DNA of 64,000 nucleotides from contig CADECP010000019.1 of the NCBI GenBank assembly GCA_902825875.1, positions 78,359 to 142,358 on the forward strand. The letters are read 5' to 3'. This document shows, one piece after another, positions 10,693 to 51,980 of this stretch. Under the pieces are notes generated by a model, which searched no databases, had not been told where the DNA came from, and was given only the letters and a program-made list of their open reading frames with translations. The stretch comes from an uncultured Acidobacteriota bacterium (lineage in GTDB: Bacteria > Acidobacteriota > Blastocatellia > RBC074). The position numbers were made by a program, and so were the translations under genes. Position 1 is the first letter of the stretch. Each line of letters begins with the position of its first letter.

Positions 10693-10770
<78 letters not shown>

Positions 10771-33801: not shown

Positions 33802-34971
33802 ATGTATTGCCAATCATCTTTTCGATGTCTGACCTTGTTCTTGTGTTTTGCGTTGTGTCCAGTTCTTGCTGCTGGCCAGCAGTCAGGGCCAATAAACGAA
33901 TTCACGCTCGGCATCCAGCAGCGCAATGAAATTATGTCGTCCTTTCGTGTCCTGCGGAATACCAACGCCAATGAATTGAGTGAAAAAGTGTTTCGGATGT
34001 TGTTGGCGACTTCGGTTGTCAGAAATGCAGGGCGTGATCTGGGCTGGGAACTGACGTTGATTGCGTCGGATGATGTCAACGCATTCACCACCGCCAATGG
34101 CAAGGTATATGTGACCTCAGGGATGATCGAAAAAGTGTTGGGAACGAATTACGGATTGTGGGCGGCCGTGCTTGGGCACGAAATTGGCCATGGGTTGGAA
34201 AATCATGTCCACAAAGCTTATGTGCGCCATTACCAACACGAATTGCAAAGAGTCAATTTGTTGAACCTGTCAAATCAGGGGCAGGCGTGGGCCAGTTGGG
34301 CCTTGGTGGCGCATATGACGGTGGGAAGCATGGCCAAGTTAAAGGTGTCGCGTGATGAAGAATCGCAGGCCGATTTTCTAGGGGTGATGATGATGGCCGA
34401 AGCAGGAGTTCATCCCGATTACGCGATTGCCATGACTCGCCGGATGGCGGCAACGACGGGCGATTTAGGAAAGGTCATGACGTTTTTCAGCAGCGATCAT
34501 CCGCGCTGGGCGACTCGCGAAGAAAACGCCTGGCGCAATTGGACGGCGGCGATCTCTCATTTTCGAAACCGTTGGAACGATCCGGTTGGTTCGCCCGGCG
34601 GTATGCCGCCGCCCATTGTCGGATTCGGTAAAGCTCATATCGTCAAGGACGGCAAAAACAAATTGGTTTCGATTACTGCGCCTTACCTTGTCAGAAACGC
34701 AAGCGAGGCTTTCGTCGGCGTCATCTTTGAACACAAAGGGAAAATCGTTCAAGGAGCTTTGCCGGAATACCGATTCGACAGCGGCGCGCTGGGCGTGATG
34801 CGTCCTGCTCGAATCAGCAATGGAATCGAAGACAGTCAATTTTCAATCAGCATTCCTTCGTCGGCGCTCGGCGGCAAGGAGCGGACGCTGGACGCTTATT
34901 TGGTGATTTGGGCCAACGGCAAAACGGTTGGGTATTCCGAAAAACTGAAAGTTTCGTTTCCCAAACCGTGA
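33802..34971 (+). CDS. Exported M48-family zinc metallopeptidase with C-terminal beta-rich domain
   Basis: ATG 33802 follows an AAAGGAG RBS. Signal peptide 'CLTLFLCFALCPVLAAGQ'. 'NAFTTANGKVYVTSGMIEKV...WAAVLGHEIGHGLENH' (HExxH) plus downstream 'EESQADFLG' are typical of peptidase M48. The stop is 24 nt before the first CIS gene. Confidence 0.8.
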   Translation: MYCQSSFRCLTLFLCFALCPVLAAGQQSGPINEFTLGIQQRNEIMSSFRVLRNTNANELSEKVFRMLLATSVVRNAGRDLGWELTLIASDDVNAFTTANGKVYVTSGMIEKVLGTNYGLWAAVLGHEIGHGLENHVHKAYVRHYQHELQRVNLLNLSNQGQAWASWALVAHMTVGSMAKLKVSRDEESQADFLGVMMMAEAGVHPDYAIAMTRRMAATTGDLGKVMTFFSSDHPRWATREENAWRNWTAAISHFRNRWNDPVGSPGGMPPPIVGFGKAHIVKDGKNKLVSITAPYLVRNASEAFVGVIFEHKGKIVQGALPEYRFDSGALGVMRPARISNGIEDSQFSISIPSSALGGKERTLDAYLVIWANGKTVGYSEKLKVSFPKP

Positions 34972-34995
34972 AGGCCAGAGAGAAAAACCGACACA

Positions 34996-35580
34996 GTGAA
35001 AGCAAATGCAAAGGCAAATTCGGATGGAGCGACGGCCATTGCCGTCGTTACGGCGGCGCTGAAAAGTCGTCTGAGCAATGGTCTGGTCGCTTTTGGCAAC
35101 GTCAACGTTATCGCCCAACCACCGGACAAAATCGCGGTTGGTGAAAACGAAGACGGGCAGATCAATCTGTTTCTTTACCGCGTGGCCCCGCACACTCGAC
35201 TGTTGTCGAACAAATCCGCGGATCTGCGCTCCAAAAACGAAGTGACTGCTTTGTCGTTGGAATTGAACTACCTGCTGACGGTTTATGCCGCGCAGGATTT
35301 TCAAACTGAAATTCTGCTTGGCCGCGCCATTCAACTGATTCACGAAACGCCAAACTTGAGCGCAGAGGAATTGAATCGTGCCACCCAGGAACTTCAAGGC
35401 AAACGCACTGGCAAATCAGGTTCCGGGCAAAGCTCTGATTTGATCGAAGAGGTGAGGATTACACCGCAATTTCTGAATTTCGAAGAAATGGCCAGGCTCT
35501 GGTCGTCGCTGCAATCGCGTTACAGGCCGTCGGTCGCTTATCAGGCGTCGCCAGTGTTGATCTACAGCAAACAGAGTTGA
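34996..35580 (+). CDS. DUF4255 (Pvc16/Afp16 N-terminal domain) protein, short paralogue; CIS tail-cap family
   Basis: 'AIAVVTAALKSRLSNGL...NVNVIAQPPDKI...GQINLFLYRVAPHTRL...ALSLELNYLLTVYA...RITPQFLNFEEMARLWSSLQSRYRPSVAYQASPVLI' follows the DUF4255 pattern seen in eCIS loci. Confidence 0.75.
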   Translation: MKANAKANSDGATAIAVVTAALKSRLSNGLVAFGNVNVIAQPPDKIAVGENEDGQINLFLYRVAPHTRLLSNKSADLRSKNEVTALSLELNYLLTVYAAQDFQTEILLGRAIQLIHETPNLSAEELNRATQELQGKRTGKSGSGQSSDLIEEVRITPQFLNFEEMARLWSSLQSRYRPSVAYQASPVLIYSKQS

Positions 35581-35586
35581 ACTTCG

Positions 35587-37614
<2,028 letters not shown>

Positions 37615-37653
37615 GGTTCGTCTCAATGTGGTTGGTTTTAAGAAGGAATAACG

Positions 37654-38409
37654 ATGGCAGTATCAAAACGAAAAGAACGAAGCATGGACAATTATTCCGT
37701 GGGGAGTACGCAAGCCACAACATATAAGACAGATGGCTCGTTAAACGATGATGTCACCTCTGATATTTCTGATTCATTTCGTAATAGCGGCCATGACTTT
37801 GCTGAGTGTCTGCCACTCAATATCGGCGAGTTCAGTGAAAAACCTTCTCAAGCTTATTCCATCCAGGAAGCGATCCGTCGATTCCTGGAAACTAATGGGA
37901 ATTTACCGAATCTTGTAAATTCGCCTCTCTCTAAAATTCTTTCCCGCGCTTCATCCGTAGTTGGTGGCTATGAAATGTACGTCAATCTTTGTGGTGAAGA
38001 TGGGTTCTTGAAGAACCCTACTGATCCGGAGTCGTTTTCAAAGCTGGGAAAGGGAATAGCTGGAGGAGCAGGAGCATTCGGCGGGCCAGTAGGGACAGCG
38101 TTTGCTGGAGGATATGCAATAGGAGACTTGGCTAATGAGTTAACTGACCACGTGTTAGGAGGGAAGGGGCGCTCAGCTTTTGACATTCTGGCTTCTGATC
38201 CGTTGATAAGTAAATTTGGCGACTCAATGGGTAATTTCAATGAAGCTCTGGCTAACGAGATCGTAGGGCTTACTGATTCTGCAGGGAATTTGCTGAAGGA
38301 CGAAAATGAGCAGGAAAATCAGTTACCTGGATCTATCAACCCCTTGAGGAGAATGCAGCAAATCCAGCAGGAAAATCATCGGCCTAGAGTTTATCTACCT
38401 TTACGCTGA
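37654..38409 (+). CDS. Hypothetical glycine-zipper protein (candidate CIS cargo/effector)
   Basis: ATG follows an AGAAGGA RBS. The region is visibly more AT-rich than both flanks. It contains 'GKGIAGGAGAFGGPVGTAFAGGYAIGDL' (GxxxG-type glycine zipper), with polar N- and C-terminal regions. I recognised no known domain. Confidence 0.55.
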   Translation: MAVSKRKERSMDNYSVGSTQATTYKTDGSLNDDVTSDISDSFRNSGHDFAECLPLNIGEFSEKPSQAYSIQEAIRRFLETNGNLPNLVNSPLSKILSRASSVVGGYEMYVNLCGEDGFLKNPTDPESFSKLGKGIAGGAGAFGGPVGTAFAGGYAIGDLANELTDHVLGGKGRSAFDILASDPLISKFGDSMGNFNEALANEIVGLTDSAGNLLKDENEQENQLPGSINPLRRMQQIQQENHRPRVYLPLR

Positions 38410-38427
38410 TGACATAAGTGGTGACAA

Positions 38428-39336
38428 ATGAGTCAGCCGGAAAATTTTGAGATTAATGGGTTGCCGGACGCTTTATCGAGCTTGGTGACAGAGTTCGGAG
38501 CAGTTGATTCGCAGGCGATTGCCTTCAGCTTCGCAGCGCCGACGAAAGAATGTATTGCTTCACTGACGCAGCCGACGATCAATTTTTTTCTCTTCGACAT
38601 TCGTGAAAACACGGAAAAGCGCGAGGTCAATCCGCAGGTGTTTCGGCGGGTCGCAGAGAAAGAAGGCGGGCGGAAGATGCCTCCCAGGCGGATGGATTTG
38701 AGTTATCTGGTCAGCGTCTTTGCCAGCGATGCGCGCGATGAACTGGCTTTGTTGTGGCGAGTGACGGCGGTGTTGATGCGGCATCCGGTGTTGCCGGAAG
38801 AGGTGATGCCGGAAGAGTTGAAAGAGAATTTGCGGCGGATGGACGCGCAGATCACGGCTCGATTGCATGAAAAAGAATCGGGGCGCGATTTGTTGGAATG
38901 GTGGACGGCTTTGGGAGTGACGCCGCGCGCTTCGCTGCATTACGTGGTGACTGTGCCGCTTGATCTGGAAAGCGAATTGAAATCGAAACTGGTGTTGTCG
39001 TGGCAATTGCGCGTCGGTGAAATCGAAGCGCGCGACCCGAAGCAGTCCGAGGTTGTAGAGCAATTCGGCGGCAGAATTTACAACCAGCGTCGCCAACCGC
39101 AGCAAAACCTGACTGTCAGTTTGCAAACTGACGCGCAGGAAAAGAACCGGCAGCGGCGCGTCGTTGTCGAAGAGCGTCAAACAGGCAAAGACGGTCGTTA
39201 CGATTTTCGTCTTTATGAAAACGCGATGAAGCTGACGCTGACGATTTCGCGCGAAGGGAATGTTTTGAAAAGGTTTGAGCATTCGGGCGCCACGCCGCCG
39301 GATGAGTGGAGAGAAGTCATTTTGGATGTCAATTGA
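38428..39336 (+). CDS. DUF4255 (Afp16/Pvc16-like tail terminator/cap) protein, long paralogue
   Basis: 'TQPTINFFLFDIRENTEKRE', 'MDLSYLVSVFA' and 'ASLHYVVTVPLDLE' match the DUF4255 pattern. The C-terminal ~90 aa 'GGRIYNQRRQPQQNLTVSL...TGKDGRYDFRL' resemble a carboxypeptidase-regulatory-like beta-sandwich. Confidence 0.75.
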   Translation: MSQPENFEINGLPDALSSLVTEFGAVDSQAIAFSFAAPTKECIASLTQPTINFFLFDIRENTEKREVNPQVFRRVAEKEGGRKMPPRRMDLSYLVSVFASDARDELALLWRVTAVLMRHPVLPEEVMPEELKENLRRMDAQITARLHEKESGRDLLEWWTALGVTPRASLHYVVTVPLDLESELKSKLVLSWQLRVGEIEARDPKQSEVVEQFGGRIYNQRRQPQQNLTVSLQTDAQEKNRQRRVVVEERQTGKDGRYDFRLYENAMKLTLTISREGNVLKRFEHSGATPPDEWREVILDVN

Positions 39337-39377
39337 CAATGAGGTTGTCATGTCGGCTGCAAAGTTTTGAAACAATA

Positions 39378-39402
39378 AAACGCGAGCGGGAGGCTCGCGT
39401 TT
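39378..39402 (+). promoter_or_regulatory. Intra-operon hairpin just upstream of the sheath gene
   Basis: 'aaacgcgagc' - loop 'gggag' - 'gctcgcgttt' forms a 10-bp stem. It sits in the only long (88-nt) spacer of the operon, immediately before the AAAGGAGG RBS of the sheath gene. An upstream 'ttgaca' and the small palindrome 'tgacaa-tgagg-ttgtca' lie at 39334-39350. Confidence 0.45.
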
Positions 39403-39424
39403 CAATCACAAAGGAGGTTTGACC

Positions 39425-40996
39425 ATGCCTGAATACTTGTCGCCCGGAGTTTACATCGAAGAGGTCAACACTGGCCCTCGCCCGATTGAAGGCGTGGGCA
39501 CGTCCTGCGCGGCGTTTGTCGGTTTTGCCGCAACCGGGCCGATCAACGAACCCCAACTCATCAGCAATTGGATGCAATATGTCGAAACGTTTTGCGACGT
39601 CAAAAACGGGCGCCGGGACGGCAGTTTTCAGATTCCGCATAAAACCGAACAGGGCACTATGGTCAACACTTATCTGGGGCAATCTGTCCGAGGTTTTTTC
39701 AATAACGGAGGCGGGCGTTGTTATGTTGCTCGCGTTGGAGATTATTCGTTGGGAACCAAACCGATTCTGCAAATTCCCAAACAGGACGGCAACGCGACTT
39801 TATTGACCATTGAAGCGAAAGAGGGAGCGACACGAAACATCAAGGTCGAAATCGCGTCCGCCGAAGGCGAAAACCCGCCTGCCGGAAGTTTCACGATGAT
39901 CGTCACGCCTGAAGGCAGCGGCGCGCCGGAACGATACGAAAACGTATTGCCGAAAGCGGATGGGGAAAACAGCATTGTCACCAAAGTTCAGGAACGTAGC
40001 CGATTGATTACGGTTACGGTTGTCGCCACAGGGCCGATCGCGCAACGCACGTTACAAACGGGGACTTACCCATTGAACGTAACTTCTCCTGCAATGGAAG
40101 TTTCAGTGCAATCAAAAGATTTCATCGGTGATGCCGGCGAACGCAAAGGCATTGAAGGAATGCAGGTGGCCGAAGAAGTGACGATGTTATGTTGCCCTGA
40201 TCTGATGGCGGCTCATCAAGCCGGGTACCTGAATGACGACGGTGTGCTGCAAGTGCAGCAGGCAATGATTACTCATTGCGAATTGATGAAGGATAGGTTG
40301 GCGATTCTGGACACGCCCTACAACAAAGTGAAGCCGGACGATGTTCGGAAATGGCGCATCGCCGCCGGATTCAACTCGAAATTCGCGGCCTTGTATTATC
40401 CGTGGATCAGCGTTTCGGGCGCGGACGGAAAATTGATGGACGTTCCCCCAAGCGGTTATATCGCGGGCATATATGCGCGCAGCGACCGGGAGCGTGGCGT
40501 TCACAAAGCTCCTGCCAATGAAAACGTGCGCGACGCAGTCAGAGTCAGTGTTCAATTAACCAAAGGCGAGCAGGATACGTTGAACCCTGAAGGGGTCAAT
40601 TGCATTCGCGTGTTTCCCAATCAAGGCGTGACGGTGTGGGGAGCGCGGACTTTAAGCGATGACGCCGCCTGGCGATACATCAACGTTCGTCGCTTGTTCA
40701 ATTACGTCGAAAAATCAATTGAACGCGGGACGCAATGGGTGGTCTTTGAACCCAACGACCATGATTTGTGGGCGCGCGTTCGGCGAGACGTGACGGCGTT
40801 TCTGACCGGCGTATGGCGCAGCGGAGCATTGTTCGGGCACAAACCCGAAGAAGCCTTTTACGTTAAATGCGATGAGGAATTGAATCCTGAATCCGTTCGC
40901 AATGAAGGCAAGCTGGTTGTGGAAATCGGCCTAGCTCCGGTCAAACCGGCGGAATTCGTCATCTTTCGCCTGAGCCAGTTTAGCGGCGGCGCGTAA
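39425..40996 (+). CDS. Contractile tail sheath protein
   Basis: 'MPEYLSPGVYIEEVNTGPRPIEGVGTSCAAFVGFA' is the canonical sheath N-terminus. The C-terminal 'VNCIRVFPNQGVTVWGARTLS...WRYINVRRLFNYVEKSIERGTQWVVFEPND' is the conserved sheath C-domain. Confidence 0.9.
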   Translation: MPEYLSPGVYIEEVNTGPRPIEGVGTSCAAFVGFAATGPINEPQLISNWMQYVETFCDVKNGRRDGSFQIPHKTEQGTMVNTYLGQSVRGFFNNGGGRCYVARVGDYSLGTKPILQIPKQDGNATLLTIEAKEGATRNIKVEIASAEGENPPAGSFTMIVTPEGSGAPERYENVLPKADGENSIVTKVQERSRLITVTVVATGPIAQRTLQTGTYPLNVTSPAMEVSVQSKDFIGDAGERKGIEGMQVAEEVTMLCCPDLMAAHQAGYLNDDGVLQVQQAMITHCELMKDRLAILDTPYNKVKPDDVRKWRIAAGFNSKFAALYYPWISVSGADGKLMDVPPSGYIAGIYARSDRERGVHKAPANENVRDAVRVSVQLTKGEQDTLNPEGVNCIRVFPNQGVTVWGARTLSDDAAWRYINVRRLFNYVEKSIERGTQWVVFEPNDHDLWARVRRDVTAFLTGVWRSGALFGHKPEEAFYVKCDEELNPESVRNEGKLVVEIGLAPVKPAEFVIFRLSQFSGGA

Positions 40997-41029
40997 GGTT
41001 CAGTCAACCAACAGAAACGGAGGATCAAG

Positions 41030-41470
41030 ATGCAAGAAAAAGACCCGGTAGTTTCGTCGTGGTTCGGTGTCGAGTTTCAAGGCCAGGTGGTGGGTGCGTT
41101 TCGGGAATGCACGGGAATGGGCAGCGAAAACGAAGTCGTTGAATACAAAGCCAGCGGACCCAAAGGCGAATTCGTCATCAAGAAAGTTCCCGGTCGCATG
41201 AAGTGGAACAATATCACTCTTAAACGCGGCATTACCGACGCGATGGACATGTGGAAATGGCGCAAGATGATCGAAGACGGCGAAATTGACGCTGCGCGAA
41301 AGAATGGTTCAATCGTTATGTACAACCAGGCCGGTCAGGAAGTCGCGCGTTGGGATTTCGTCAACGCCTGGCCGTCGAAACTCAGCGGCCCGACAGCCAA
41401 CGCCAACAACAACGAAGTGGGAATCGAAGAACTGGAAATCACCCACGAAGGATACAAGCGCGTGAAATGA
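41030..41470 (+). CDS. Tail tube protein (T4 gp19-like / Afp1-like)
   Basis: 'FGVEFQGQVVGAFRECTGMGSENEVVEYK...KKVPGRMKWNNITLKRGIT...WKWRK...FVNAWPSKLSGP' matches the gp19-family CIS tube pattern. Confidence 0.85.
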   Translation: MQEKDPVVSSWFGVEFQGQVVGAFRECTGMGSENEVVEYKASGPKGEFVIKKVPGRMKWNNITLKRGITDAMDMWKWRKMIEDGEIDAARKNGSIVMYNQAGQEVARWDFVNAWPSKLSGPTANANNNEVGIEELEITHEGYKRVK

Positions 41471-41500
41471 CCGGTTAACCACGAGAGCGACGCCTGATTT

Positions 41501-41878
41501 ATGCCGACAACCTTGCAGACCGAATATGAATTCACCTTGCCGCGGGGCTACGTTGACGCGCAGGGCAATTTGCATCGGCGCGGAATCATGCGGCTGGCAA
41601 TGGCGCGGGACGAAATCGAACCTATGGCCGATCCGCGCGCGCAAGCCAATGAATCCTACCTTGCGATTTTGTTGCTGGCGCGTGTAGTCACACGGTTAGG
41701 AGAAGTTTCTCCCGTCAGCCCCGCTGTGATCGAAAACTTGTACGCGGCGGATTTTGCTTACTTGCAAGATGTTTATCTGCGGCTCAACGACGACGCCAGC
41801 CGTTGGATTGCCACCGAATGTCCGAACTGCCAAACGCGGTTTGAACTGGACCTGTTGAGTGAAGATGCCAGCGAATAA
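41501..41878 (+). CDS. Probable tail assembly chaperone (P2 gpE-like by position and pattern)
   Basis: It lies directly after the tube gene, as in P2 (FII then E). 'RRGIMRLAMARDEIEPMAD...ILLLARVVTRLGEVSPVSPAVIENLYAADFAYLQDVY' resembles gpE-type chaperones. It has a C-terminal 'ECPNCQTRFELD' Cys pair. Confidence 0.5.
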   Translation: MPTTLQTEYEFTLPRGYVDAQGNLHRRGIMRLAMARDEIEPMADPRAQANESYLAILLLARVVTRLGEVSPVSPAVIENLYAADFAYLQDVYLRLNDDASRWIATECPNCQTRFELDLLSEDASE

Positions 41879-42062
41879 TTCAATCACGGCAGGCGATGAT
41901 GCGGAACTGAAAAATATGACAAGCCGGAACGACGGTTTGGAATCCGAGCCGGACGATCCGCAGATTGATCTGCGACTGCTGACAGACAAGGTTTATCTGT
42001 TGATGCAACAGGAAGCCCGATTGGATCGCTCACGAAATGGGGAAATTCTGTGGAGGAGATGA
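41865..42062 (+). CDS. Small acidic protein overlapping the chaperone gene 3' end
   Basis: The ATG at 41865 lies inside the last codons of the upstream gene. The product ends with 'IDLRLLTDKVYLLMQQEARLDRSR', a motif shared with the C-terminus of the 552-aa protein. Coding status is supported mainly by operon packing. Confidence 0.4.
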   Translation: MPANNSITAGDDAELKNMTSRNDGLESEPDDPQIDLRLLTDKVYLLMQQEARLDRSRNGEILWRR

Positions 42063-42068
42063 CCGTTG

Positions 42069-42509: not shown

Positions 42510-42515
42510 CGCTTT

Positions 42516-44174: not shown

Positions 44175-44201
44175 GCGGAAACTCAGCAAGGAGTCAAAGC
44201 A

Positions 44202-44879
44202 ATGAGCGCAGCGGGATTGGCGAAAGCGATTATTGTCAAATTGGATAAACAGAACCGTCCGGTTCAATCCGAATCGGTCAAGGTGATGTTCAATCCCAAA
44301 GAACTGGTTTTTACAAAGCATAACACCTGGAAACAGGGAGAAACGCCTCAAGCCAATGTGCCTGATTTTGAATTCGGCAGCGGCGGGGCGACGACGCTGA
44401 CGCTGGAATTGTTTTTTGACACTTACGCCGAACGAAAAGACGTTCGCAAAGTGTACACCGACGCCATTTACAAAATGACGCTGGTGGACGAGCGGTTGAT
44501 TGACGAGAAGACCAAAAAAGGCCGTCCGCCGACGGTTCGGTTTCAATGGGGGCAAACAGTCGGTTTTGACGCGGTGATTGCCAGCATTACTCAACGGTTC
44601 ACGCTGTTTTTGCCGGATGACGGAATGCCCGTGCGGGCGACGGTGAACGTAACTTTTTCGCAGGTTAAAGACGCGCTGTTTTATCCGCGCCAAAACCCGA
44701 CTTCAGGCGGCGCGGGCGGAGAACGTATTTACACCGTCAAAGAAGGCGACACGCTGACCTGGATTGCGTTCAATGAATACAACGATGCGACTCAATGGCG
44801 GCGGATTGCCGACGCAAATGAATTGACCCAAATACGGCGACTGATTCCGGGCGCCAAGCTGGTGATTCCTCATGCATGA
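44202..44879 (+). CDS. CIS tube-initiator-like protein with C-terminal LysM domain (Afp7/Pvc7-like)
   Basis: The N-terminal 'AKAIIVKLDKQNRPV...VKVMFNPKELVFTKHNTW...FEFGSGGATTLTLELFFDTY' matches the tube-fold initiator pattern. The C-terminal 'YTVKEGDTLTWIAFNEYNDATQWRRIADANEL...PGAKLVIP' is a LysM domain. Confidence 0.8.
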   Translation: MSAAGLAKAIIVKLDKQNRPVQSESVKVMFNPKELVFTKHNTWKQGETPQANVPDFEFGSGGATTLTLELFFDTYAERKDVRKVYTDAIYKMTLVDERLIDEKTKKGRPPTVRFQWGQTVGFDAVIASITQRFTLFLPDDGMPVRATVNVTFSQVKDALFYPRQNPTSGGAGGERIYTVKEGDTLTWIAFNEYNDATQWRRIADANELTQIRRLIPGAKLVIPHA

Positions 44880-46515
44880 ACAAGGGCAACTCATCACTCA
44901 TTTTCGATTGATCTTGGGCGGGCGGGACGCGCCGGAAGAATTGATGTCCGCAGCTCTCGAAATCGCGGTGGAAAGCAGTTTGCACATGCCGGATGTGGCC
45001 ACTCTGGTCATTCACGATCCACGGTTGTTATGGATTGACAGCGATTTGCTCAAACCTGGCCAGGAATTGAAAGTCTCGGTGACTGACCTAATCAGCGGAC
45101 GTGAATCGCGCGAACCGATCTTTGACGGCGAAATTGTGGAGATCGAGCCGGAATTCACGTCGGAGACGCATTCGTTGACAATTCGCGCATTTGACCGATT
45201 GCACAGGTTGACGCGGGGACGGCGAGTACGTTCGTTTCAGAATGTGACCGACGGCGACGTTGCGCGCTTAATTGCCAACGAAGTGCGATTGGAAACTGAA
45301 GTCGCCGAAACTCGCCGCGTTCATTCTTATTTGCTGCAATGCAATCAGACCAATCTGGAATTTTTGCGTGAACGAGCTGCCGCGCTTGGTTATTTGCTTT
45401 ATGCGCAGGGCAAGAAGCTGTGTCTCAAACCGCTCAAGCATGAAGAGCAGATCGAACTGCAATGGGGAAAAAGTTTGTTGGAATTTCGTCCGCGCCTGAC
45501 GACGTTGTCGCAAGTGGACACGGTGCAAGCGCGCGGTTGGGACCCAATCACGCGACAAGAATTATTGGCGCAAGTCAGTGACGGGCAGGGAATGCGCGAA
45601 ATTGGCCAGAAACAATCCGGCGGCAAGCTGGTCAAACAGTTGTTTCGGTTGGAAACTAGCCATCTGATTGTTGAGCGTCCGGTTCGATCTCAATCGGACG
45701 CCGAAAATCTGGCGCAGGCAACAGCCGATCGTGTCGCCGAAAGTTTCGTTGAAGCCGAAGGCGTTTGTGTTGGCAAGCCGGAATTGGTTGCGGGCGTTTC
45801 CATTATGGTTAGCGCCGTTGGCCAACAATTCGGCGGCAAGTATTTCGTGACATCGGCTTCGCATGTTCATAACGCCCGTGACGGATACGTCACACGATTC
45901 ACGATTTCCGGCCAATCGCCTTCTTCGTTGCTTCGGCTATTGCGTCCGGAAAAGGAAAGCCGTTCATCCGAATTTTTTCTGACGCTCGGCTTGGTTACGG
46001 ACAATAACGACCCGGAAGGATGGGGGCGGGTTCGCGTGAAATATCCGGGATTATCGTCCGATCACACCAGCGATTGGGCGCGAGTCGTGGCTGTTGGCGG
46101 CGGGCCGAGCCGCGGCATTGAGTTCCTGCCTGAAGTTAATGACGAAGTGTTGATCGGATTTGAAATGGGCGACGTGCATTTTCCGTATGTGCTCGGCGGG
46201 TTGTGGAACGGCCAGGACGATCCGCCGAAAAAGAGCGATCAAATCGTCGGCAATGGGCGTGTTCGCCAACGCATCATTCGTTCGCGCAGCGGCCATGTGA
46301 TTACGCTCGACGATGACAACGGAGGCATTTCGCTGACGGATCGCGACGGCAATCGGGTTCAAATAAATAGCAAAGGCATTGTCATGGCTCATCAAAACGG
46401 AAACAGCCTGACGCTTGAGTCAGGCAAGCTGGACATCAACGTCAAAGGCAATGTTTCGATCAAATCCACAGGCGAAGTCAGCATCAACGGTGCGCTTGTC
46501 AAACTCAATTGTTAA
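44872..46515 (+). CDS. gpD / VgrG-like spike-hub protein (Afp8-like)
   Basis: N-terminal late-control-D-like region. 'GLVTDNNDPEGWGRVRVKYPGLSSDHTSDWARVVAVGGGPSRGIEFLPEVNDEVLIGFEMGDVHFPYVLGGLWNG' is the gp5/VgrG OB-fold signature. It has a short beta-helix tail, and its start overlaps the LysM gene stop. Confidence 0.85.
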   Translation: MHEQGQLITHFRLILGGRDAPEELMSAALEIAVESSLHMPDVATLVIHDPRLLWIDSDLLKPGQELKVSVTDLISGRESREPIFDGEIVEIEPEFTSETHSLTIRAFDRLHRLTRGRRVRSFQNVTDGDVARLIANEVRLETEVAETRRVHSYLLQCNQTNLEFLRERAAALGYLLYAQGKKLCLKPLKHEEQIELQWGKSLLEFRPRLTTLSQVDTVQARGWDPITRQELLAQVSDGQGMREIGQKQSGGKLVKQLFRLETSHLIVERPVRSQSDAENLAQATADRVAESFVEAEGVCVGKPELVAGVSIMVSAVGQQFGGKYFVTSASHVHNARDGYVTRFTISGQSPSSLLRLLRPEKESRSSEFFLTLGLVTDNNDPEGWGRVRVKYPGLSSDHTSDWARVVAVGGGPSRGIEFLPEVNDEVLIGFEMGDVHFPYVLGGLWNGQDDPPKKSDQIVGNGRVRQRIIRSRSGHVITLDDDNGGISLTDRDGNRVQINSKGIVMAHQNGNSLTLESGKLDINVKGNVSIKSTGEVSINGALVKLNC

Positions 46516-46531
46516 GTTCAGGAGTGATTCT

Positions 46532-46801
46532 ATGCCTTGTCTTCCTGCTGCCAAGTTGGGCGATCAAATTGTTTCTCGGCGCACTTACGTCATCGCTACG
46601 CTGGTTGAAATCAGCGTTTTGATCGAAGGAAGACCCGCAGCCGTTCAAGGCAGCGGCGATTCCGACAAAGCGCAAATCCTTAGCGGCAGCTTGACGGTCT
46701 TGGTTGGCGGCAAAATGGCCGCCCGCGCGACTGACCCGGCCAACACGGACAAAGGGCCGGGCAATGTGATCGCTCCATTGGGCACGGTTTTGATTGGATA
46801 G
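46532..46801 (+). CDS. PAAR-domain spike tip protein
   Basis: ATG 46532 follows an AGGAG RBS. Three PAAR-like repeats: 'LPAAKLGD', 'RPAAVQGSGD' and 'KMAARATD'. The ORF-track start at 46415 overlaps the spike gene and is unlikely. Confidence 0.8.
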   Translation: MPCLPAAKLGDQIVSRRTYVIATLVEISVLIEGRPAAVQGSGDSDKAQILSGSLTVLVGGKMAARATDPANTDKGPGNVIAPLGTVLIG

Positions 46802-46813
46802 GAGAAAACAGCG

Positions 46814-47224
46814 ATGGAAGATTTTTTAGGCAACGGATGGACGTTCCCGACCGGCGTGGATGCGCACGGGCGTATTGCGTTGGCTCGGCAGGAAAACGAC
46901 ATTGAACAAGCCATAAGGATCATTCTGATGACTCCGAAAGGGCAGCGTGTCATGCGCCCCAATTTCGGATGTGGCATTCACGATTTGCTGTTTGCGCCGA
47001 ACGATTCCGCCACCGCCGGACTGGCCGCGCATTACGCCGAAGACGCATTGCGAATGTGGGAGCCGCGCATTCGCGTGTTGGAAGTCAAAGCCGAGCGCGA
47101 TCCGAATCAGCCTGAGTGTTTGTTGATTGAAGCTCTGTATGAAGTGAAAGCCACGCTTGATCGCCGTTCGCTGGTGTTTCCTTTTTACAGCATTCCCGGA
47201 GAAGAAAACGAATTGCGCCCTTGA
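46814..47224 (+). CDS. Baseplate wedge protein, GPW/gp25 family (Afp9-like)
   Basis: 'GWTFPTGVDAHGRIALARQENDIEQAIRIILMTPKGQRVMRPNFGCGIHDLLF' is the gp25/GPW lysozyme-like core. Confidence 0.85.
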   Translation: MEDFLGNGWTFPTGVDAHGRIALARQENDIEQAIRIILMTPKGQRVMRPNFGCGIHDLLFAPNDSATAGLAAHYAEDALRMWEPRIRVLEVKAERDPNQPECLLIEALYEVKATLDRRSLVFPFYSIPGEENELRP

Positions 47225-47243
47225 TTGTCGCAGAGGATGATTT

Positions 47244-49286
47244 ATGCCTTTACCCGCGCCGGAACTGGACAACAGAACTTCGCAAAGCATAGTGGACGAA
47301 GCGAAGCGATTGATTCCACAGTTTTGTCCCGAATGGACGGATCACAATGTCAGCGATCCGGGCGTGACGCTGATAGAGCTGTTCGCCTGGATGACCGAAA
47401 TGCTGTTGTATCGCGTCAATCAGGTTCCCGCTAAAAACTACATCAAGTTTCTGGAAATGCTTGGTTTGAAATTGCGCCCGCCCCAAGCAGCCGAAGCCAA
47501 TGTCACATTTTATCTTTCGGCTCCGCTCGACGAATTGTCATCCGAGCCAAAACTGGAAGCCGGGACTGAAATCGCCACTGTTCGCACGGAACTGAAAAAC
47601 GCCGTAGTCTTTTCCACTCTTGAAGACCAGAATCTGCGTTCGCCTCAACTGAGCAACGCATTGACTTACAGCCGACGTTCTGGAGCCGACGAAAGGATTC
47701 AACACGATTTGAAAGCGCTGCGCGATCTGGATGGCGTCATAACGATGTTTTCCAATCCGCCGGTTCATGCCGACGATGGCCGCGAAGGAGACGCCTTTTA
47801 TCTGGTTTTCTCCAACAATATCAGTCGGCATGTGATTTCGCTTTCATTGAAATTTCGCGAGGGGGAAGTGGTTGGGGTCACTTCAGACGATCCGCCGATT
47901 GTCTGGCAAGCCTGGAGCAACAACGAATTGAACTGGGTCAATTGTCCGTTGGAACGAGACGGAACGCGCGGATTGACGCGCAATGGAGAAATCGTCCTGC
48001 GGTTGCCTGAGATGGCGAAAAAGACCGAACAAGGCGTGACCGGATACTGGCTGCGATGTTCATTGACCAAACCTGTCGCTGGCCAACACGAGTATTTGAA
48101 TTCTCCTGCTTTGCGGCGGGAAATTCGCGCCAAGACTCTGGGCGCAACGATTCGAGCGAAACACGCCGCGACGGCGTTGGACGAATTTCTGGGCGTCAGC
48201 GACGGTTCTCCGGGACAAAGTTTCCAGTTTCCTCACTTTCCGTTGTTGGAGCGCAATCCGCAATCGGATTATCTGAATGTGATTGGAGAACCGGATCAAA
48301 GCGATTGTGCAGTTTGGGCTGAAGTCGGCGATTTTGGCGATTCGAACGAAAACAGTTTGCATTACACGATTGACGATTTGACCGGAACGCTCAGCCTGGG
48401 GCCGGCGTTGCGACAACCTAACGGCAGCGTGCGACGATTTGGCAAAGTTCCGGCGCGCGGAGCTGAATTGCGGTTCAAGCGATACAGTTACGGCGGAGGG
48501 ACTGAAGGCAATGTGGCGGCAGGATTCATCGTCGTGATGAAATCAGCCAAATCGTACATTTCAAAAGTCATCAATTGGGAACCTTCCGTTGGCGGACGCG
48601 ACGCCGAATCTTTGGAACAAGCCATTCTGCGCGTTCCTGCCATGTTGCGCTCTCACGAACGCGCCGTCACCGTCGAAGATTACGAATATCATGCCAAAAC
48701 AATTGCCGGAGTCGCTGACGCTTATTGCGTCGGACCTGGCCTGATTCGAGAAAACGAAATGGCTACGGAAGCAGATAAAAAGAAATCTTACGGCGCCGAA
48801 CTTCCCAAGCCCGGTGAGGTTCACGTCTACATTCTTCCGCAAGTCGCGCACACAGATTCTTTGCGGTTTGAGCAGCTTAAGTTGGACGAAACAGTTCGAC
48901 AACGCGCGCAGTCCGAATTGCAAAGCCGCTCTGTCCTTGGCGTGACGGTCAAAGTGATGCCGGTGAAGATCGTGGAAATTTCCGTCGAAGCCAAATTGGT
49001 CAACCGGGATCGAACCAACGGCGAAAATTTGAAACGTCAGGCGCAGGAAGCCATCAAACGATTTTTGAACCCTTTCACTGGCGGTCCAAAAGGCAATGGT
49101 TGGCGACAAGTTTCAGTGCTGCACAAATCCGATTTGTATCGGTTGCTGCTGAATCTGCCGATGGTCGAACACATCGAAGAAATTTTCATCAAACGCGGTC
49201 CAGCCGGAGAAAACATTCCAGCAGCTTTGGAATTGGGTGGAATCGTTGTTTGTTCCGGCGAACATCAGATTGAAATCGTGAGGTGA
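47244..49286 (+). CDS. Baseplate J-like protein (P2 gpJ / T4 gp6 / Afp11-like)
   Basis: 'LDNRTSQSIVDEAKRLIPQFCPEWTDHNVSDPGVTLIELFAWMTEMLLYRVNQVP' and C-terminal 'GGRDAESLEQAILRVPAMLRSHERAVTVEDYE' are conserved baseplate-J motifs. Confidence 0.85.
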   Translation: MPLPAPELDNRTSQSIVDEAKRLIPQFCPEWTDHNVSDPGVTLIELFAWMTEMLLYRVNQVPAKNYIKFLEMLGLKLRPPQAAEANVTFYLSAPLDELSSEPKLEAGTEIATVRTELKNAVVFSTLEDQNLRSPQLSNALTYSRRSGADERIQHDLKALRDLDGVITMFSNPPVHADDGREGDAFYLVFSNNISRHVISLSLKFREGEVVGVTSDDPPIVWQAWSNNELNWVNCPLERDGTRGLTRNGEIVLRLPEMAKKTEQGVTGYWLRCSLTKPVAGQHEYLNSPALRREIRAKTLGATIRAKHAATALDEFLGVSDGSPGQSFQFPHFPLLERNPQSDYLNVIGEPDQSDCAVWAEVGDFGDSNENSLHYTIDDLTGTLSLGPALRQPNGSVRRFGKVPARGAELRFKRYSYGGGTEGNVAAGFIVVMKSAKSYISKVINWEPSVGGRDAESLEQAILRVPAMLRSHERAVTVEDYEYHAKTIAGVADAYCVGPGLIRENEMATEADKKKSYGAELPKPGEVHVYILPQVAHTDSLRFEQLKLDETVRQRAQSELQSRSVLGVTVKVMPVKIVEISVEAKLVNRDRTNGENLKRQAQEAIKRFLNPFTGGPKGNGWRQVSVLHKSDLYRLLLNLPMVEHIEEIFIKRGPAGENIPAALELGGIVVCSGEHQIEIVR

Positions 49287-49292
49287 AATCGC

Positions 49293-49763
49293 GTGCATCA
49301 ACCCAGTTCTTACCTGCATTACCTGCCTGTTATTTTTCAAACCGACGAATTTCTTGGGCGCTTTTTGCGCATATTTGAAACGGTTTGGGAACCGTTGGAA
49401 CAGCGTCAGAATCACCTTGCTTCGTATTTCGATCCGGCGACCTGCCCGACGAACTTTTTGCCCTGGCTGGCCAGTTGGTTCAATTTGCCGTTCAGCGAAA
49501 ACTGGCCTGAATCTCAACAGCGGTTGTTGGTCAAACAGGGTTTCAGGTTGAGCCGACGCAGTGGAACTCTGGTCGGATTGGAAACCATTCTGGAATTGTG
49601 CGTAGGTCAAAAACCGACCATCGTCCAATCGCCTGACGATCATTTTGTCTATCGAATCTCTCTGATTTTGCCTGCTCAGCCGGAAGTGACTGAAGCGTTT
49701 CTTCATCAAATCATTCAACTTCATAAACCCGCTTTCATTGGCTACACGTTGGAGGTGAAATGA
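49293..49763 (+). CDS. P2 gpI-like baseplate protein (short Afp12 equivalent)
   Basis: 'SYLHYLPVIFQTDEFLGRFLRIFETVWEPLEQ...YFDPATCPTNFLPWLASWFNL' matches the Tail_P2_I pattern. GTG start. Confidence 0.8.
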   Translation: MHQPSSYLHYLPVIFQTDEFLGRFLRIFETVWEPLEQRQNHLASYFDPATCPTNFLPWLASWFNLPFSENWPESQQRLLVKQGFRLSRRSGTLVGLETILELCVGQKPTIVQSPDDHFVYRISLILPAQPEVTEAFLHQIIQLHKPAFIGYTLEVK

Positions 49764-51799
49764 TGGCTACGATCACTGTGATTGATTCTGAAGGAAAAGT
49801 GGATTTCAACTTTCCGTTAGCTGATAAACCTGTCAGGCTCGGAAAAGGAGAGAACTGCAACAAGGTCTTGCCGGAATTGCCAGTCAGTGGGCCGCAATTG
49901 GAAATCGAATACGACGCCGGCCAAAACCGCTTGCTGGCAAGGCGGCTCAGTTCAGACTGCGAAGTCTGGATCGGCGACCAACGAATCGGTGACGGAAGCG
50001 CAATTTGGCCTGCGGAAATCGAATTGCGAATTGGGACGTATCGGTTGACGAACGACCTTGGCTCTGCGAATAGGCCAATTTCCGCTCAAGATGGATTTTC
50101 TGTTGAGATCAAGTCAGGAGAGGATTATTTGAGCCTGACTCCTGGCGCTCCGATGAATTGTTCGTTGCGGATCACCAACCAAAGCGCCCGTAACGTCACC
50201 GGAGCTTTGCACGTGGAAATCAATGGCCAACCTATCAAGTGGTGCGCCGGTGCCGGAAACATGGGACGGGCGTTTACGCCGTATGAAGAGCGAACCTTTA
50301 CATTGACCTTTACTGCTCCAACCGACTCGACGGTAAAAGCAGGAACGTATCAAGTGGATGTAACAGCCATCCCTGATTCCAAAGTAGAAAAGTTTCGTTC
50401 GGGAGGTGATTCTCTTACTGCCATCGTTGAACGCTTTCCTCAACATTCCCAGCGAATAGACCGGCTGTTACGGTTCAACCCGCTGTTTGGCTTCATTTTC
50501 CGTTCAGCCCGCTTCAATTTCGAAGTCAACAACACTGGCAATTGCGACGATACGTATTCGTTGGCCACTGCGCCGAATTCCGATTCCGACGAACGCACCG
50601 AATACCAATTCACCGACACGGGAGCGCCGAAAACCTCGTTGGAAGCGGCAGTCGGCAATGTCAATGCAGCTCAGCTTCAGGTTCAACGGCCATTGCTCTG
50701 GTTTCCGTTGTGGAAGGGCCATCGCTTCAACGCTTCGATTGCGAATAGCGCAAATCAAATCGTCAGGTTCACGCAACTTTCCGTGGTTTGGCTGATTTTG
50801 GTTACAGGTTTGTTGGGTTGGCTTGGATGGCATGCAGGAATGATATTGCTGAAACCAAAGTTTGAGATTGAGAAGACCGGTTTCAAGCCGGATAAAATTG
50901 AAGCTGGCGATAAAGTTGAAGTTTTCTGGAAAGCGCTCCGCGCTTCTACTGTTGATATTTATCAAGTTATGGGAAATCAACAGCAGCCAAAATCACTTTT
51001 GCAGAATCGTGCCGGATCGTCCGAAGGAGAAGAGATAGGACCTTTTGAAAAGGATATTGAACTCCTGTTTATCGCCAGGAATTTTTGGGGAGAAGATCGC
51101 ACAACACTTCCCATACCTGTTGGCTTTCAAGAAGCGACGATTCGTTTCATCACAGAAAATCCCAAGAGGCTACAACTTACCGAAACTGGGAGCGTGGATA
51201 TGTCCGTTGAATTTGAGGTTGTCAAAGGGAAATTCATCAGCGAAGTCACTATCAATGGAGATCCGGTGACTGAAGTGGCCGGTAAATATTCGTACCCAAT
51301 ATCACCTGAAGGTTCTAAACAGTACGTTGTTGAAGTCCGTTACTCTAACAGTCAAAAGGTGACGAAGGATACTTTTCGGGTAATCGTTGACAAGCCTACT
51401 CCTACACCTTCAGCTACTCCGACGCCATCCCCGACGCCGCTTACAGATTGTAGTCTCAGCGCCATTTGGCCTGCCACAGTGGTGGAAAGGATGGAAAGGA
51501 GGAGAAACGCCACAAACATTCATCGAGGCGACATGATTGACCTGAAATGGGAAGTCAGAGACGCAGATAGAATTAAGATCACACAGCAGACCGACGGAAA
51601 CGGACCGACTACTTTTTTGGAAAGCACGCGCGTAGCGGATAAGCAAGAAGTCATACCGCCACTGAAGCGTAGTACCACCTTTACACTCATTGCGTTCAAA
51701 AATGGCCAACAGACAATATGCAATTCAGTAAGAATTGTAGTCAATTGCAAGGATCGCAGCCTGACAAATCTTTTGGGTGAATGGAAACCCTGTAGGTAG
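49760..51799 (+). CDS. Single-pass membrane protein with degenerate FHA-like N-domain and Ig-like modules, in the tail-fibre slot
   Basis: The start overlaps the gpI-like stop (ATGA). There is no signal peptide, and the TM segment is 'FTQLSVVWLILVTGLLGWLGWHAGMILL' (aa ~338-364). It has FHA-like spacing at the N-terminus, CARDB/NEW3-like strings 'SLRITNQSARNVTGALHVEING' and 'TFTLTFTAPTDSTVKAGTYQVDVTAIP', a 'PTPTPSATPTPSPTP' linker, and two related post-TM modules ('GDKVEVFWKALRASTVDIYQV' and 'GDMIDLKWEVRDADRIKITQQ'). Confidence 0.6.
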   Translation: MMATITVIDSEGKVDFNFPLADKPVRLGKGENCNKVLPELPVSGPQLEIEYDAGQNRLLARRLSSDCEVWIGDQRIGDGSAIWPAEIELRIGTYRLTNDLGSANRPISAQDGFSVEIKSGEDYLSLTPGAPMNCSLRITNQSARNVTGALHVEINGQPIKWCAGAGNMGRAFTPYEERTFTLTFTAPTDSTVKAGTYQVDVTAIPDSKVEKFRSGGDSLTAIVERFPQHSQRIDRLLRFNPLFGFIFRSARFNFEVNNTGNCDDTYSLATAPNSDSDERTEYQFTDTGAPKTSLEAAVGNVNAAQLQVQRPLLWFPLWKGHRFNASIANSANQIVRFTQLSVVWLILVTGLLGWLGWHAGMILLKPKFEIEKTGFKPDKIEAGDKVEVFWKALRASTVDIYQVMGNQQQPKSLLQNRAGSSEGEEIGPFEKDIELLFIARNFWGEDRTTLPIPVGFQEATIRFITENPKRLQLTETGSVDMSVEFEVVKGKFISEVTINGDPVTEVAGKYSYPISPEGSKQYVVEVRYSNSQKVTKDTFRVIVDKPTPTPSATPTPSPTPLTDCSLSAIWPATVVERMERRRNATNIHRGDMIDLKWEVRDADRIKITQQTDGNGPTTFLESTRVADKQEVIPPLKRSTTFTLIAFKNGQQTICNSVRIVVNCKDRSLTNLLGEWKPCR

Positions 51800-51838
51800 A
51801 CGCGGGTAGAAGACCATCTGCGAAGTTGTTCATCCACC

Positions 51839-51889
51839 AAAACCGCAACTGCCACGGCATCTGCTGCCGGACGGTTGCGGTTTTCTTTT
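51839..51889 (+). terminator. Terminator hairpin closing the CIS operon
   Basis: 'aaaaccgcaac' (51839-51849) pairs with 'gttgcggtttt' (51874-51884), followed by 'ctttt'. It lies 40 nt after the last CIS-operon stop. Confidence 0.6.
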
Positions 51890-51980
51890 GCAACCGTCGC
51901 CAGCTTGCGCCGATGCTGGCCTCTGCTGATAATGCCCGCTATCTTCAAAGCTTCTCGAAAAGGGAATCAGTAACAACACA

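Follow-up and report, generated by a model that had tools for sequence, protein, structure and literature searches.

The closest described relatives of the locus analyzed here are contractile injection systems (CISs) of Streptomyces. In Streptomyces coelicolor the genes run from the ATPase gene sco4259 over the effector genes sco4256-58 and the sheath gene sco4253 to the baseplate genes, with sco4242, encoding CisA, as the last gene, and the system has neither a fibre nor a tape measure (PMC10066040). The effectors Sco4256-58, whose genes separate the ATPase gene from the sheath gene, share their N-terminus and vary at the C-terminus; they are toxic and fill the lumen of the tube (PMC10066040). 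Models of CIS(Sc) have been deposited as 9GTP and 9GTS (Casu 2025; PMC12237407), and its baseplate wedge, consisting of two Cis11 and one small Cis12, has been called pyocin-like (PMC12237407). The characterized Streptomyces systems of subtype IId are cytoplasmic (PMC10066040, PMC10020575, PMC12237407), as are those of Roseiflexus and Deinococcota, which contract on cell lysis (PMC12998442). The diagnostic features of subtype IId are a single afp11, a contiguous afp8, the presence of afp10 and the absence of afp12, afp13 and afp14 (Chen 2019; PMC6899500). Here we describe an 18-gene locus, very probably a member of this subtype, in a stretch of 64,000 nucleotides of contig CADECP010000019.1 (the window in the following).

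The 18 open reading frames (ORFs) of the locus lie on the + strand (33802–51799), run in one direction and are tightly packed. With the most plausible starts the intergenic distances are -14 to 39 nt, and the sole exception is an 88-nt spacer before the sheath ATG at 39425; this is the layout given in an earlier reading of the sequence made without database searches (the original prediction). The products were scanned against Pfam, with matches counted against the curated cut-offs, and against NCBIfam, PHROGs and PADLOC, and were compared with all PDB chains by sequence searches. The features of the locus, with the matches that identify them, are:

33802–34971, + strand: exported M48 zinc metallopeptidase, first gene of the operon (Peptidase_M48, 1e-21; HEIGH motif intact)
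34996–35580, + strand: DUF4255 paralogue 1 (cap1), adjoining the ATPase gene (Pvc16_N, 5.5e-35)
35587–37614, + strand: Afp15/Cis15-type AAA+ ATPase with an N-terminal winged helix (WHD, 2e-21; AAA, 9e-26)
37654–38409, + strand: candidate cargo or effector, an orphan with a Gly/Ala-rich segment, in a variable slot between ATPase and cap2
38428–39336, + strand: Cis16-type cap (DUF4255 paralogue 2, cap2) with a C-terminal extension (Pvc16_N, 1e-29; PDB 9gts_0A, 6e-18)
39378–39402, + strand: stable hairpin in the 88-nt spacer that precedes the sheath gene (39337–39424; -17 kcal/mol, z -4.6, no U-tract after it)
39425–40996, + strand: one-piece sheath (Cis2; Phage_sheath_1 and Phage_sheath_1C; PDB 8bky/9gtp)
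41030–41470, + strand: inner tube (Cis1a; Phage_T4_gp19, 7.5e-40)
41501–41878, + strand: tail-assembly-chaperone-like protein of 125 aa with a C-terminal CxxC (PHROG 508, 5.6e-9)
41865–42062, + strand: small conserved protein of 65 aa, its gene overlapping the chaperone gene (also in the related loci L001, L035, L037 and L039)
42069–42509, + strand: second tube paralogue (Cis1b-like tube initiator layer; Phage_T4_gp19, 3.8e-42)
42516–44174, + strand: degenerate DUF4157/eCIS_core protein of 552 aa at the tape-measure position (orthologues match PF13699)
44202–44879, + strand: LysM tube initiator (Cis7; CIS_tube, 2.4e-27; LysM, 2e-6)
44872–46515, + strand: single-ORF VgrG-like spike of 547 aa (Cis8; Phage_base_V, 1.6e-24, and YQBQ, above cut-offs)
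46532–46801, + strand: PAAR tip (Cis10; PAAR_motif, 7e-8)
46814–47224, + strand: gp25/TssE-like wedge protein (Cis9; GPW_gp25, 5e-24)
47244–49286, + strand: baseplate J of 680 aa (Cis11; Baseplate_J, 4.6e-16; TIGR02243, 9.5e-104; PDB 9gtp_1K, 4e-121)
49293–49763, + strand: small Tail_P2_I wedge protein of 156 aa (Cis12; Tail_P2_I, 2.4e-16; PDB 9gtp_E, 1.3e-12)
49760–51799, + strand: bitopic FHA-fold membrane protein at the tail-fibre position, its gene overlapping the Cis12 gene by 4 nt
51839–51892, + strand: intrinsic-terminator-like hairpin and U-tract at the operon end (hairpin 51839–51884, -27.6 kcal/mol, z -4.4)

The analysis bore out the component identities proposed earlier, namely the M48 peptidase, both DUF4255 proteins, the AAA+ ATPase, the sheath, the two gp19-like tubes and the LysM, PAAR, gp25, J and I proteins, together with the gpE-like chaperone (PHROG 508 is a tail assembly chaperone family) and the terminator hairpin after the last gene. 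The proposed gpD/VgrG spike held for Phage_base_V and YQBQ, whereas the match to Phage_GPD fell just under the cut-off (29.2 vs 30.1 bits). The ATG at 46532 yields a PAAR product of 89 aa, equal in length to those of the relatives. The chaperone-like protein, which has copies of 45–49% identity in Streptomyces and Deinococcus clusters, is conserved across subtype IId. Directly 3' of the terminator hairpin the sequence reads UUUUCUUUU.

The core set of sheath, tube, LysM initiator, VgrG, gp25, J, AAA+ ATPase and DUF4255 is present, each defining domain scoring above its cut-off. The best PDB match of the sheath is 8bky/9gtp from CIS(Sc), full length and with an E-value of 5e-155; the next matches are the Anabaena tCIS (1e-54), Pvc2 (4e-54), AlgoCIS (2e-52) and Afp3 (9e-52), and in the ranking as a whole CIS(Sc) stands far ahead of tCIS, PVC, AlgoCIS, Afp, pyocin and T4. 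The best sequence matches to solved structures come from CIS(Sc)/CIS(Sv) for the sheath, Cis11, Cis12 and Cis16, where 9gtp_E, a 190-aa baseplate chain of CIS(Sc), was taken as Cis12 on the basis of gene position and wedge composition. The sheath shares 48% identity with its counterpart in a IId cluster of S. clavuligerus and 50% with those of Deinococcus IId clusters, and the best plasmid matches of J are found in Deinococcus and Streptomyces. All IId diagnostics of Chen 2019 were found in the window, with one J ORF, one base_V ORF and a PAAR gene. The locus contains no large Afp12, in place of which it encodes the 156-aa Tail_P2_I protein, and neither an Afp13-like fibre gene nor a match to the Afp14 tape measure was detected in it with Pfam and the other libraries. 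These findings point to a subtype IId CIS, an assignment that we regard as nearly certain.

The gene order is likewise close to that of CIS(Sc). Both have, in this order, the ATPase, an effector slot, sheath, tube, chaperone-like protein, small ORF, second tube, LysM protein, VgrG, gp25, J, small I protein and a bitopic membrane protein, and both lack a fibre and Afp14 and have a wedge of Cis11 and a small Cis12. The annotated S. clavuligerus cluster has the run seen in the window, namely sheath, tube, hypothetical protein, small ORF, tube, LysM, VgrG, gp25, J and small tail protein, followed by a 584-aa protein with a single transmembrane (TM) segment. The features singled out as atypical by the original prediction, i.e., a cap/ATPase module at the 5' end, a baseplate of W, J and a small I protein, the missing fibre and a closing membrane protein, are therefore the norm for subtype IId and match the S. 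coelicolor cluster. Its minimal P2-like baseplate is real, but such a baseplate has already been described in CIS(Sc) (PMC12237407). The window differs from CIS(Sc) in that a PAAR gene is present, which is absent in S. coelicolor (PMC10066040), in the exported M48 peptidase and second DUF4255 gene added before the ATPase, and in its host, which is presumably diderm and non-mycelial.

A second group of relatives is formed by the IId clusters of Chloroflexota and Deinococcota. In Deinococcus grandis (pDEGR-1) the sheath is 50% and J 40% identical to the window proteins, and Cis12 is followed by the gene of a bitopic protein with an FHA-Ig module homologous to the one in the terminal protein of the window. 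Unlike the window locus, the Deinococcus cluster is borne on a megaplasmid and is rearranged, with a divergent sheath block and with VgrG and the ATPase located downstream. The subtype Ia/Ib systems (Afp, PVC, AlgoCIS and MAC) have in common with the window the DUF4255 cap, the AAA+ ATPase, the one-piece sheath, and the LysM, VgrG, PAAR, gp25 and J proteins, but their sheath similarity is only about 1e-47 to 1e-57 (vs 5e-155 for CIS(Sc)), and their large Afp12, Afp13 fibres, Afp14 tape measure, downstream toxins and 3' ATPase/cap are not features of the locus. In comparison with type VI secretion systems (T6SSs), the sheath is of the one-piece Phage_sheath_1 type and not TssB/TssC, the ATPase is of the WHD+AAA Afp15 type and not ClpV, and no TssJLM-type match was obtained in the Pfam and NCBIfam scans of the locus and of the large ORFs of the window.

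The gp25-J-I baseplate, the chaperone and the tube genes are phage-derived, and a prophage tail module or the remnant of an R-type tailocin was considered as their source. In line with this, related sheath-bearing contigs are listed as viral in IMG/VR, and one related locus (L046) adjoins an integrase and a transposase. The small gpI-type protein weakly matches Tri2 (PA0619) of the R2 pyocin (0.003). Genes for DUF4255 and the AAA+ ATPase, which are present here, do not occur in pyocins, whereas fibres and a lysis cassette do. Among the large ORFs scanned across the 64-kb window we found no capsid or other head gene, portal, terminase, integrase, lysis (including a holin/endolysin cassette) or fibre gene. 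Att-like repeats, named beforehand as a sign of an ordinary prophage, were not found flanking the locus. The remaining large ORFs scanned are housekeeping genes: uxaC, a Mur ligase gene, the ATP synthase a subunit gene, uvrD, VitK2_biosynth (menaquinone biosynthesis), cofD/cofC, folE, phoD, a rluA-like gene, ispH, rpsA and a sppA-like gene; the only tRNA in the window is at 10694, 23 kb from the locus.

The same housekeeping neighbours recur across divergent relatives. The run folE-phoD-rluA-ispH-rpsA follows the locus also in relatives whose terminal protein is only 35–58% identical, and the system is therefore an old, vertically inherited chromosomal feature of Blastocatellia-like Acidobacteria. 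In this analysis an origin as prophage or tailocin is very improbable and already contradicted by the data, and the view of the locus as a domesticated CIS, neither prophage nor T6SS, holds with respect to the gene content, the one-piece sheath and the conserved flank. The proposed flanks stood in part: folE and cofD/cofC are present, but cofC does not adjoin the operon, as a TPR-CHAT gene and a gene for a 626-aa protein lie in between. An Acidobacteriota-like host, as had been suggested, agrees with the nearest genomes, an 'Acidobacteria bacterium' metagenome-assembled genome (MAG; ATPase 87% identical) and a Blastocatellales MAG (71%); no characterized Acidobacteriota CIS was found in the literature searched, as the original prediction had supposed.

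Three groups of related contigs were noted in the course of this comparison. In L039/L046 (ENA k141_890932) the core order is the same, the terminal gene is of a kinase-less FHA-TM type and the M48 gene is missing. One of its flanks contains genes for ParA, an HTH protein and a PD-(D/E)xK protein, and the opposite flank encodes an integrase, a transposase and a caspase-like peptidase; the system sits there on a mobile element and has thus been mobile elsewhere. A MAG labelled 'uncultured Heliomicrobium sp.' (L006/L036; CAYLJQ010000119.1) has CIS genes that are 67–97% identical to those of the window and follow the same order. This suggests that the contig is acidobacterial and was mis-binned or mislabelled. 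Finally, several IMG/VR contigs catalogued as viral (L020–L027) encode, in the order typical of a CIS, a cap, two sheath proteins, tube, chaperone-like protein, tube, LysM, VgrG, gp25 and J. In L024–L027, which span the tail module, tblastn with the window proteins as the only queries matched CIS genes alone, in the same order. These contigs look like CIS loci mistaken for phages, and the tblastn result speaks against the prophage reading.

The last gene of the locus encodes what the original prediction called a membrane protein. One TM helix (approximately aa 342–363) is indeed present, but the protein can be described more specifically as a bitopic FHA-fold member of a CIS-linked family. Its N-terminus is cytoplasmic and it has no signal peptide. 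For aa 1–110, the AlphaFold2 model has a mean confidence (pLDDT) of 87, and the top 50 Foldseek matches are all FHA folds (TM-score 0.6–0.8), including Ki67, FhaA/Rv0020c, GarA, OdhI, EmbR and the FHA-like cytoplasmic domain of PscD from the type III secretion system (T3SS). The FHA fold is followed by beta-sandwich domains, by a strongly conserved but poorly modelled stretch and by the TM helix, after which come three Ig-like domains, a PT-rich linker and invariant cysteines; this latter combination fits a periplasmic location. Foldseek with the full-length model (pLDDT 62) gave only generic multi-Ig matches (TM-score ~0.12) and was discarded, and a profile of the N-terminal domain run against the PDB gave artefactual 'Pizza' designer proteins and a weak match to the FHA domain of CEP170.

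A search of 5.8e9 proteins gave only six homologues of the terminal protein. Its close homologues number five, and wherever the context was read (L001–L004) they are encoded by the last CIS gene; for these five, as in the window, the gene directly follows that of Cis12/Tail_P2_I. The protein at the CisA position of S. clavuligerus, used here for comparison and not SCO4242 itself, showed no similarity to it (BLASTP, E = 11). CisA differs in architecture as well, with a disordered N-terminus and a substrate-binding-like C-terminal domain vs the FHA and Ig domains of the window protein. In contrast, the FHA-Ig module aligns with D. grandis DEGR_33440 (E 3e-10), a protein of 1602 aa with kinase, FHA, Ig and TM segments that is encoded right after the Tail_P2_I gene of the IId cluster. 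The Deinococcus protein differs in having an N-terminal Ser/Thr kinase and a canonical FHA signature, both of which the window protein lacks. The same arrangement is found in D. taeanensis, where the protein is annotated as 'FHA domain-containing serine/threonine-protein kinase'.

A profile of the cytoplasmic module retrieved 136 representatives (E<=1e-3) among 1.84e9 proteins. In many of these the module starts after ~310–345 residues, and in all four proteins that were read a kinase domain occupies this region. Genomic contexts were inspected for seven family members outside the window's own lineage. In five of them (D. grandis, D. taeanensis, P0034, P0035 and P0045) the gene lies directly after the Cis12/Tail_P2_I gene; P0032 adjoins an eCIS_core gene and its upstream neighbour is not identifiable. 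At the loci of P0034 and P0035 an FHA domain is present in the Cis12-like protein, too (L044, 9103–10008; L048, 5920–6870), and an FHA-fused Cis12 followed by a membrane kinase with FHA and Ig domains hints at phospho-dependent docking of the baseplate to the membrane. The kinase-bearing members keep the phosphothreonine (pThr)-binding signature GR / SxxH / NxT. The four kinase-less members, including the window protein, are without it; in the window protein, which begins with the FHA fold, GK / SGPQ stand in its place, and no Ser/Thr kinase gene was found among the ORFs scanned in the window.

An FHA-fold module on an adaptor of a secretion machine at the inner membrane is also known from PpkA-Fha1/TagH of T6SSs and YscD/PscD of T3SSs, and Yop-YscD_cpl matches occur in relatives of the family. 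The window protein differs from these in that it has no sequence-level membership, no pThr-binding residues and no accompanying kinase. No paper linking an FHA domain with an eCIS or CIS was found in the literature searched, and the study of the Deinococcus and Roseiflexus CISs does not mention the FHA protein (PMC12998442). On sequence comparison, proteins of the architecture (kinase)-FHA-Ig-TM-Ig appear to form a family that is unrelated to CisA, not yet named, and tracks the 3' end of IId-like loci across phyla.

The slot between the ATPase and cap2 provides a second point of comparison. The original prediction saw no toxin cassette behind the structural genes; this was the wrong place to look, as the IId effectors lie between ATPase and sheath (PMC10066040), and this slot is filled in the window. 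It described the gene in the slot as an AT-rich ORF of unknown nature, which is confirmed by its G + C content (45.6%, and 40.5% at third codon positions vs ~59% in the neighbours) and by the absence of any family match in Pfam, NCBIfam, PHROGs and PADLOC; the gene is compositionally foreign. Among 5.8e9 proteins the product has no homologue except itself. A glycine-zipper TM segment in the Gly/Ala-rich stretch was considered and dropped, as a Kyte-Doolittle scan gave no such segment.

The first ~100 aa of the slot proteins of the window and of the related locus L007 are 42% identical (E 2e-16), and their C-termini are unrelated. In L007 the slot protein is of 236 aa with a weak NlpC/P60 match, and in L035, L036, L037, L039 and L040 the slot holds Lipase_3/phospholipase-like proteins of 355–465 aa. 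The slot lipases start with a basic patch like that of the window leader, and one also has a GHDF motif. In none of the loci examined is the slot gene separated from cap2 by an ORF of the size expected for an immunity gene. Both the position of the slot and the pattern of a shared N-terminus with a variable C-terminus match Sco4256-58, from which toxicity and loading are carried over here by analogy; so far as one can tell, the cargo encoded in the window has no relation to Sco4256-58. A toxin slot is present in the locus, and in relatives it is occupied by lipases or an NlpC/P60-like protein.

The 552-aa product at the tape-measure position, thought to be a disordered protein in the original prediction, turned out to be a degenerate DUF4157/eCIS_core protein: its orthologues in L001, L039 and L044 match PF13699. 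An alignment showed that the HExxH segment is deleted in the copies of the window, L035 and L002, and that the flanking motifs are retained, as is a C-terminal motif (DLDxLAxQVYxxLKRRLxAERRRE). The 65-aa protein ends with a related motif, LAxxVYxxLxxxxRLExxR, and since this C-terminal motif is common to both proteins across five loci, the two may dock at one site. In Streptomyces, DUF4157 proteins bind the tube initiator and link cargo (PMC13277306), and by analogy a role of the DUF4157-like protein in loading or as an adaptor is plausible.

With moderate confidence, and by analogy with the characterized IId systems, we propose that the locus encodes a complete CIS that acts in the cytoplasm, is triggered at the membrane and is fixed in the chromosome of a Blastocatellia-type Acidobacterium. 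Particles would assemble free in the cytoplasm, and the slot protein would be loaded via its shared basic N-terminal leader, possibly helped by the DUF4157-like and 65-aa proteins with their common C-terminal motif. The cytoplasmic FHA/beta-sandwich module of the terminal protein would dock the Cis11/Cis12 baseplate to the inner membrane, whereas the periplasmic Ig repeats would couple docking to the state of the envelope and pass on the trigger. On contraction, the VgrG-PAAR spike and the cargo would enter the membrane or periplasm of the same cell, which would undergo regulated death or lysis, as in Streptomyces, instead of attacking through released particles. In favour of this mode, the locus has no tail-fibre gene, encodes at the fibre position a bitopic protein with its N-terminus in the cytoplasm, as is CisA, and has an effector slot between ATPase and sheath, as for Sco4256-58, with no immunity-sized ORF beside the slot gene. 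The absence of a fibre, a lysis cassette and an immunity gene fits self-directed action, and also an attack on non-kin targets.

The extracellular framing of the original prediction corresponds to a classical extracellular CIS. Such a system would be released by lysis of the producer, bind eukaryotic or bacterial cells through an unrecognized receptor-binding protein and inject the lipase-type or orphan cargo. The hallmarks of DUF4255, AAA+ ATPase and one-piece sheath are all there, the lipase-like cargo of relatives could act on eukaryotic membranes, the missing immunity gene is as expected with non-kin targets, and the Ig-like repeats of the terminal protein resemble adhesin-type domains of receptor-binding proteins. 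Yet the terminal protein is the sole candidate for a fibre, and with its cytoplasmic FHA fold, its TM helix in the middle of the protein and its lack of a signal peptide it fits, by topology, an integral membrane protein of the producer and not a fibre carried by the particle. In addition, the window offers no lysis cassette for release, and the nearest characterized relatives are cytoplasmic and contract on cell lysis (PMC12998442). Given these relatives, the extracellular mode is the less likely one, and we consider it unlikely.

Several observations weigh against the cytoplasmic, membrane-triggered mode that we prefer. The system of this lineage is known here from its genes alone, and its assignment to subtype IId rests on similarity ranking and gene content rather than on a tree. 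As judged by the comparison above, the terminal protein is not a CisA homologue, its FHA domain lacks the canonical pThr-binding residues, and its function as baseplate dock is a predicted interaction. The slot protein has neither a recognizable toxin domain nor a Kyte-Doolittle TM segment. The host is presumably diderm, unlike Streptomyces, and firing from an anchor in the inner membrane could reach outside the cell. Moreover, lipase and NlpC/P60-like cargo, as found in the relatives, is typical of antibacterial T6SS effectors.

Another reading is a T6SS-like, envelope-anchored machine, in which the baseplate is kept at the inner membrane by the FHA-TM protein and the spike is fired through the whole diderm envelope into neighbouring cells. 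The bitopic adaptor with its cytoplasmic FHA domain recalls Fha/TagH of T6SSs and the YscD/PscD domains of T3SSs, relatives in the family carry a fused Ser/Thr kinase, a parallel to the PpkA-Fha pathway, and the cargo of related loci is lipase-type or NlpC/P60-like, activities of the kinds that T6SSs deliver to the periplasm. On the other hand, there is no outer-membrane or trans-envelope (TssJLM-like) component and no ClpV-type recycling ATPase in the locus, the cargo gene has no immunity gene next to it even though sister cells would be struck, and Deinococcus IId particles have been seen unattached in the cytoplasm (PMC12998442). We judge this arrangement to be quite unlikely for the window; the presumably diderm host and the lipase/amidase-like cargo of relatives nevertheless leave room for an outward-firing, T6SS-like use. 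In a wider form of this idea, the (kinase)-FHA-Ig-TM-Ig proteins would be an undescribed, widespread membrane-docking and trigger module of non-Streptomyces IId CISs, originally phospho-regulated, which in a diderm host turns the CIS into an inner-membrane-anchored, outward-firing machine that sends lipase/amidase cargo across the envelope. To this we assign a low probability.

The remaining genes of the operon lie at its 5' end. The M48 peptidase has an N-terminal hydrophobic, signal-like segment (aa 5–27), and its gene is located directly before cap1 in L005, L006, L007, L035 and L037 and is missing from the more distant L039; the exported peptidase is probably part of the system's periplasmic side. 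The two DUF4255 paralogues differ in that the sheath-side copy matches the solved Cis16 cap, whereas the ATPase-side copy has no sequence match among the PDB chains. A homologue of the latter also adjoins the ATPase in other eCIS lineages (L008–L019), and relatives of cap2 have a CarboxypepD_reg-like C-terminus. A metagenome scan with cap2 gave a single contig, which was already known. Relatives of the ATPase at 47–87% identity sit in CIS loci of many phyla; its classification as a defence protein was rejected, as the PADLOC/NCBIfam matches to IetA/IteA cover only the generic AAA domain and are far below cut-off.

The spacer before the sheath gene is only about 27–35 nt in relatives, so that the 88-nt spacer is an insertion specific to the window genome. 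The hairpin at 39378–39402 precedes the highly expressed sheath and tube genes and may serve in RNA processing or stabilization. Sigma-70 promoter sites were fewer in a scan of the sequence than in shuffled versions, and the scan was uninformative.

Three further features lie upstream of the operon:

28142–31339, + strand: TPR-CHAT protein with a signal peptide, between cofC and the operon (Pfam CHAT, 1e-66, and TPRs)
31409–33289, - strand: 626-aa protein with a single TM segment, divergent, between cofC and the operon
33645–33788, + strand: 47-aa remnant of a gene for an exported protein of 169–179 aa, intact before the M48 gene in L005, L007, L035 and L037

The intact copies of the exported-protein gene are 77–82% identical to one another. 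The window retains the first ~28 codons, and as only this signal-peptide end is recognizable, the window genome has lost the gene. The TPR-CHAT and 626-aa proteins both recur 5' of the CIS in L005, L035 and L037, and at the equivalent place L007 encodes a Ser/Thr kinase-WD40 protein and an ECF sigma factor (L007, 3066–6837). These two pairs may be alternative regulators of the operon; a functional linkage of the upstream pair to the CIS is indistinguishable from plain synteny. The 626-aa protein belongs to no family in Pfam, NCBIfam, PHROGs or PADLOC, has no PDB match and shows no significant similarity to the ECF sigma factor of L007.

Downstream of the locus, the gap between folE and the probable true start of phoD (52574–52761) contains 64-nt inverted repeats, a 37-nt direct repeat 72 nt apart and a perfect 16-nt hairpin; relatives encode a PhoD of 498 aa, not 570. 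These repeats may form a regulatory structure or represent a small repeat element.

The type of system described here is known; what the comparison adds is the polymorphic cargo slot with its shared leader and the FHA-fold membrane protein family unrelated to CisA. With this lineage, subtype IId now includes a major soil phylum whose envelope is presumably diderm. The N-terminal leader shared by proteins of the variable slot is a candidate signal for cargo loading that could be used in engineering, and if the outward-firing interpretation were true, the system would represent an independent T6SS-like solution. Work on Streptomyces and Roseiflexus has left open how cytoplasmic CISs without CisA engage the membrane, and the bitopic FHA-fold protein encoded after Cis12, here as well as in Deinococcus and in metagenomic loci, is a concrete candidate for such a docking or trigger module.

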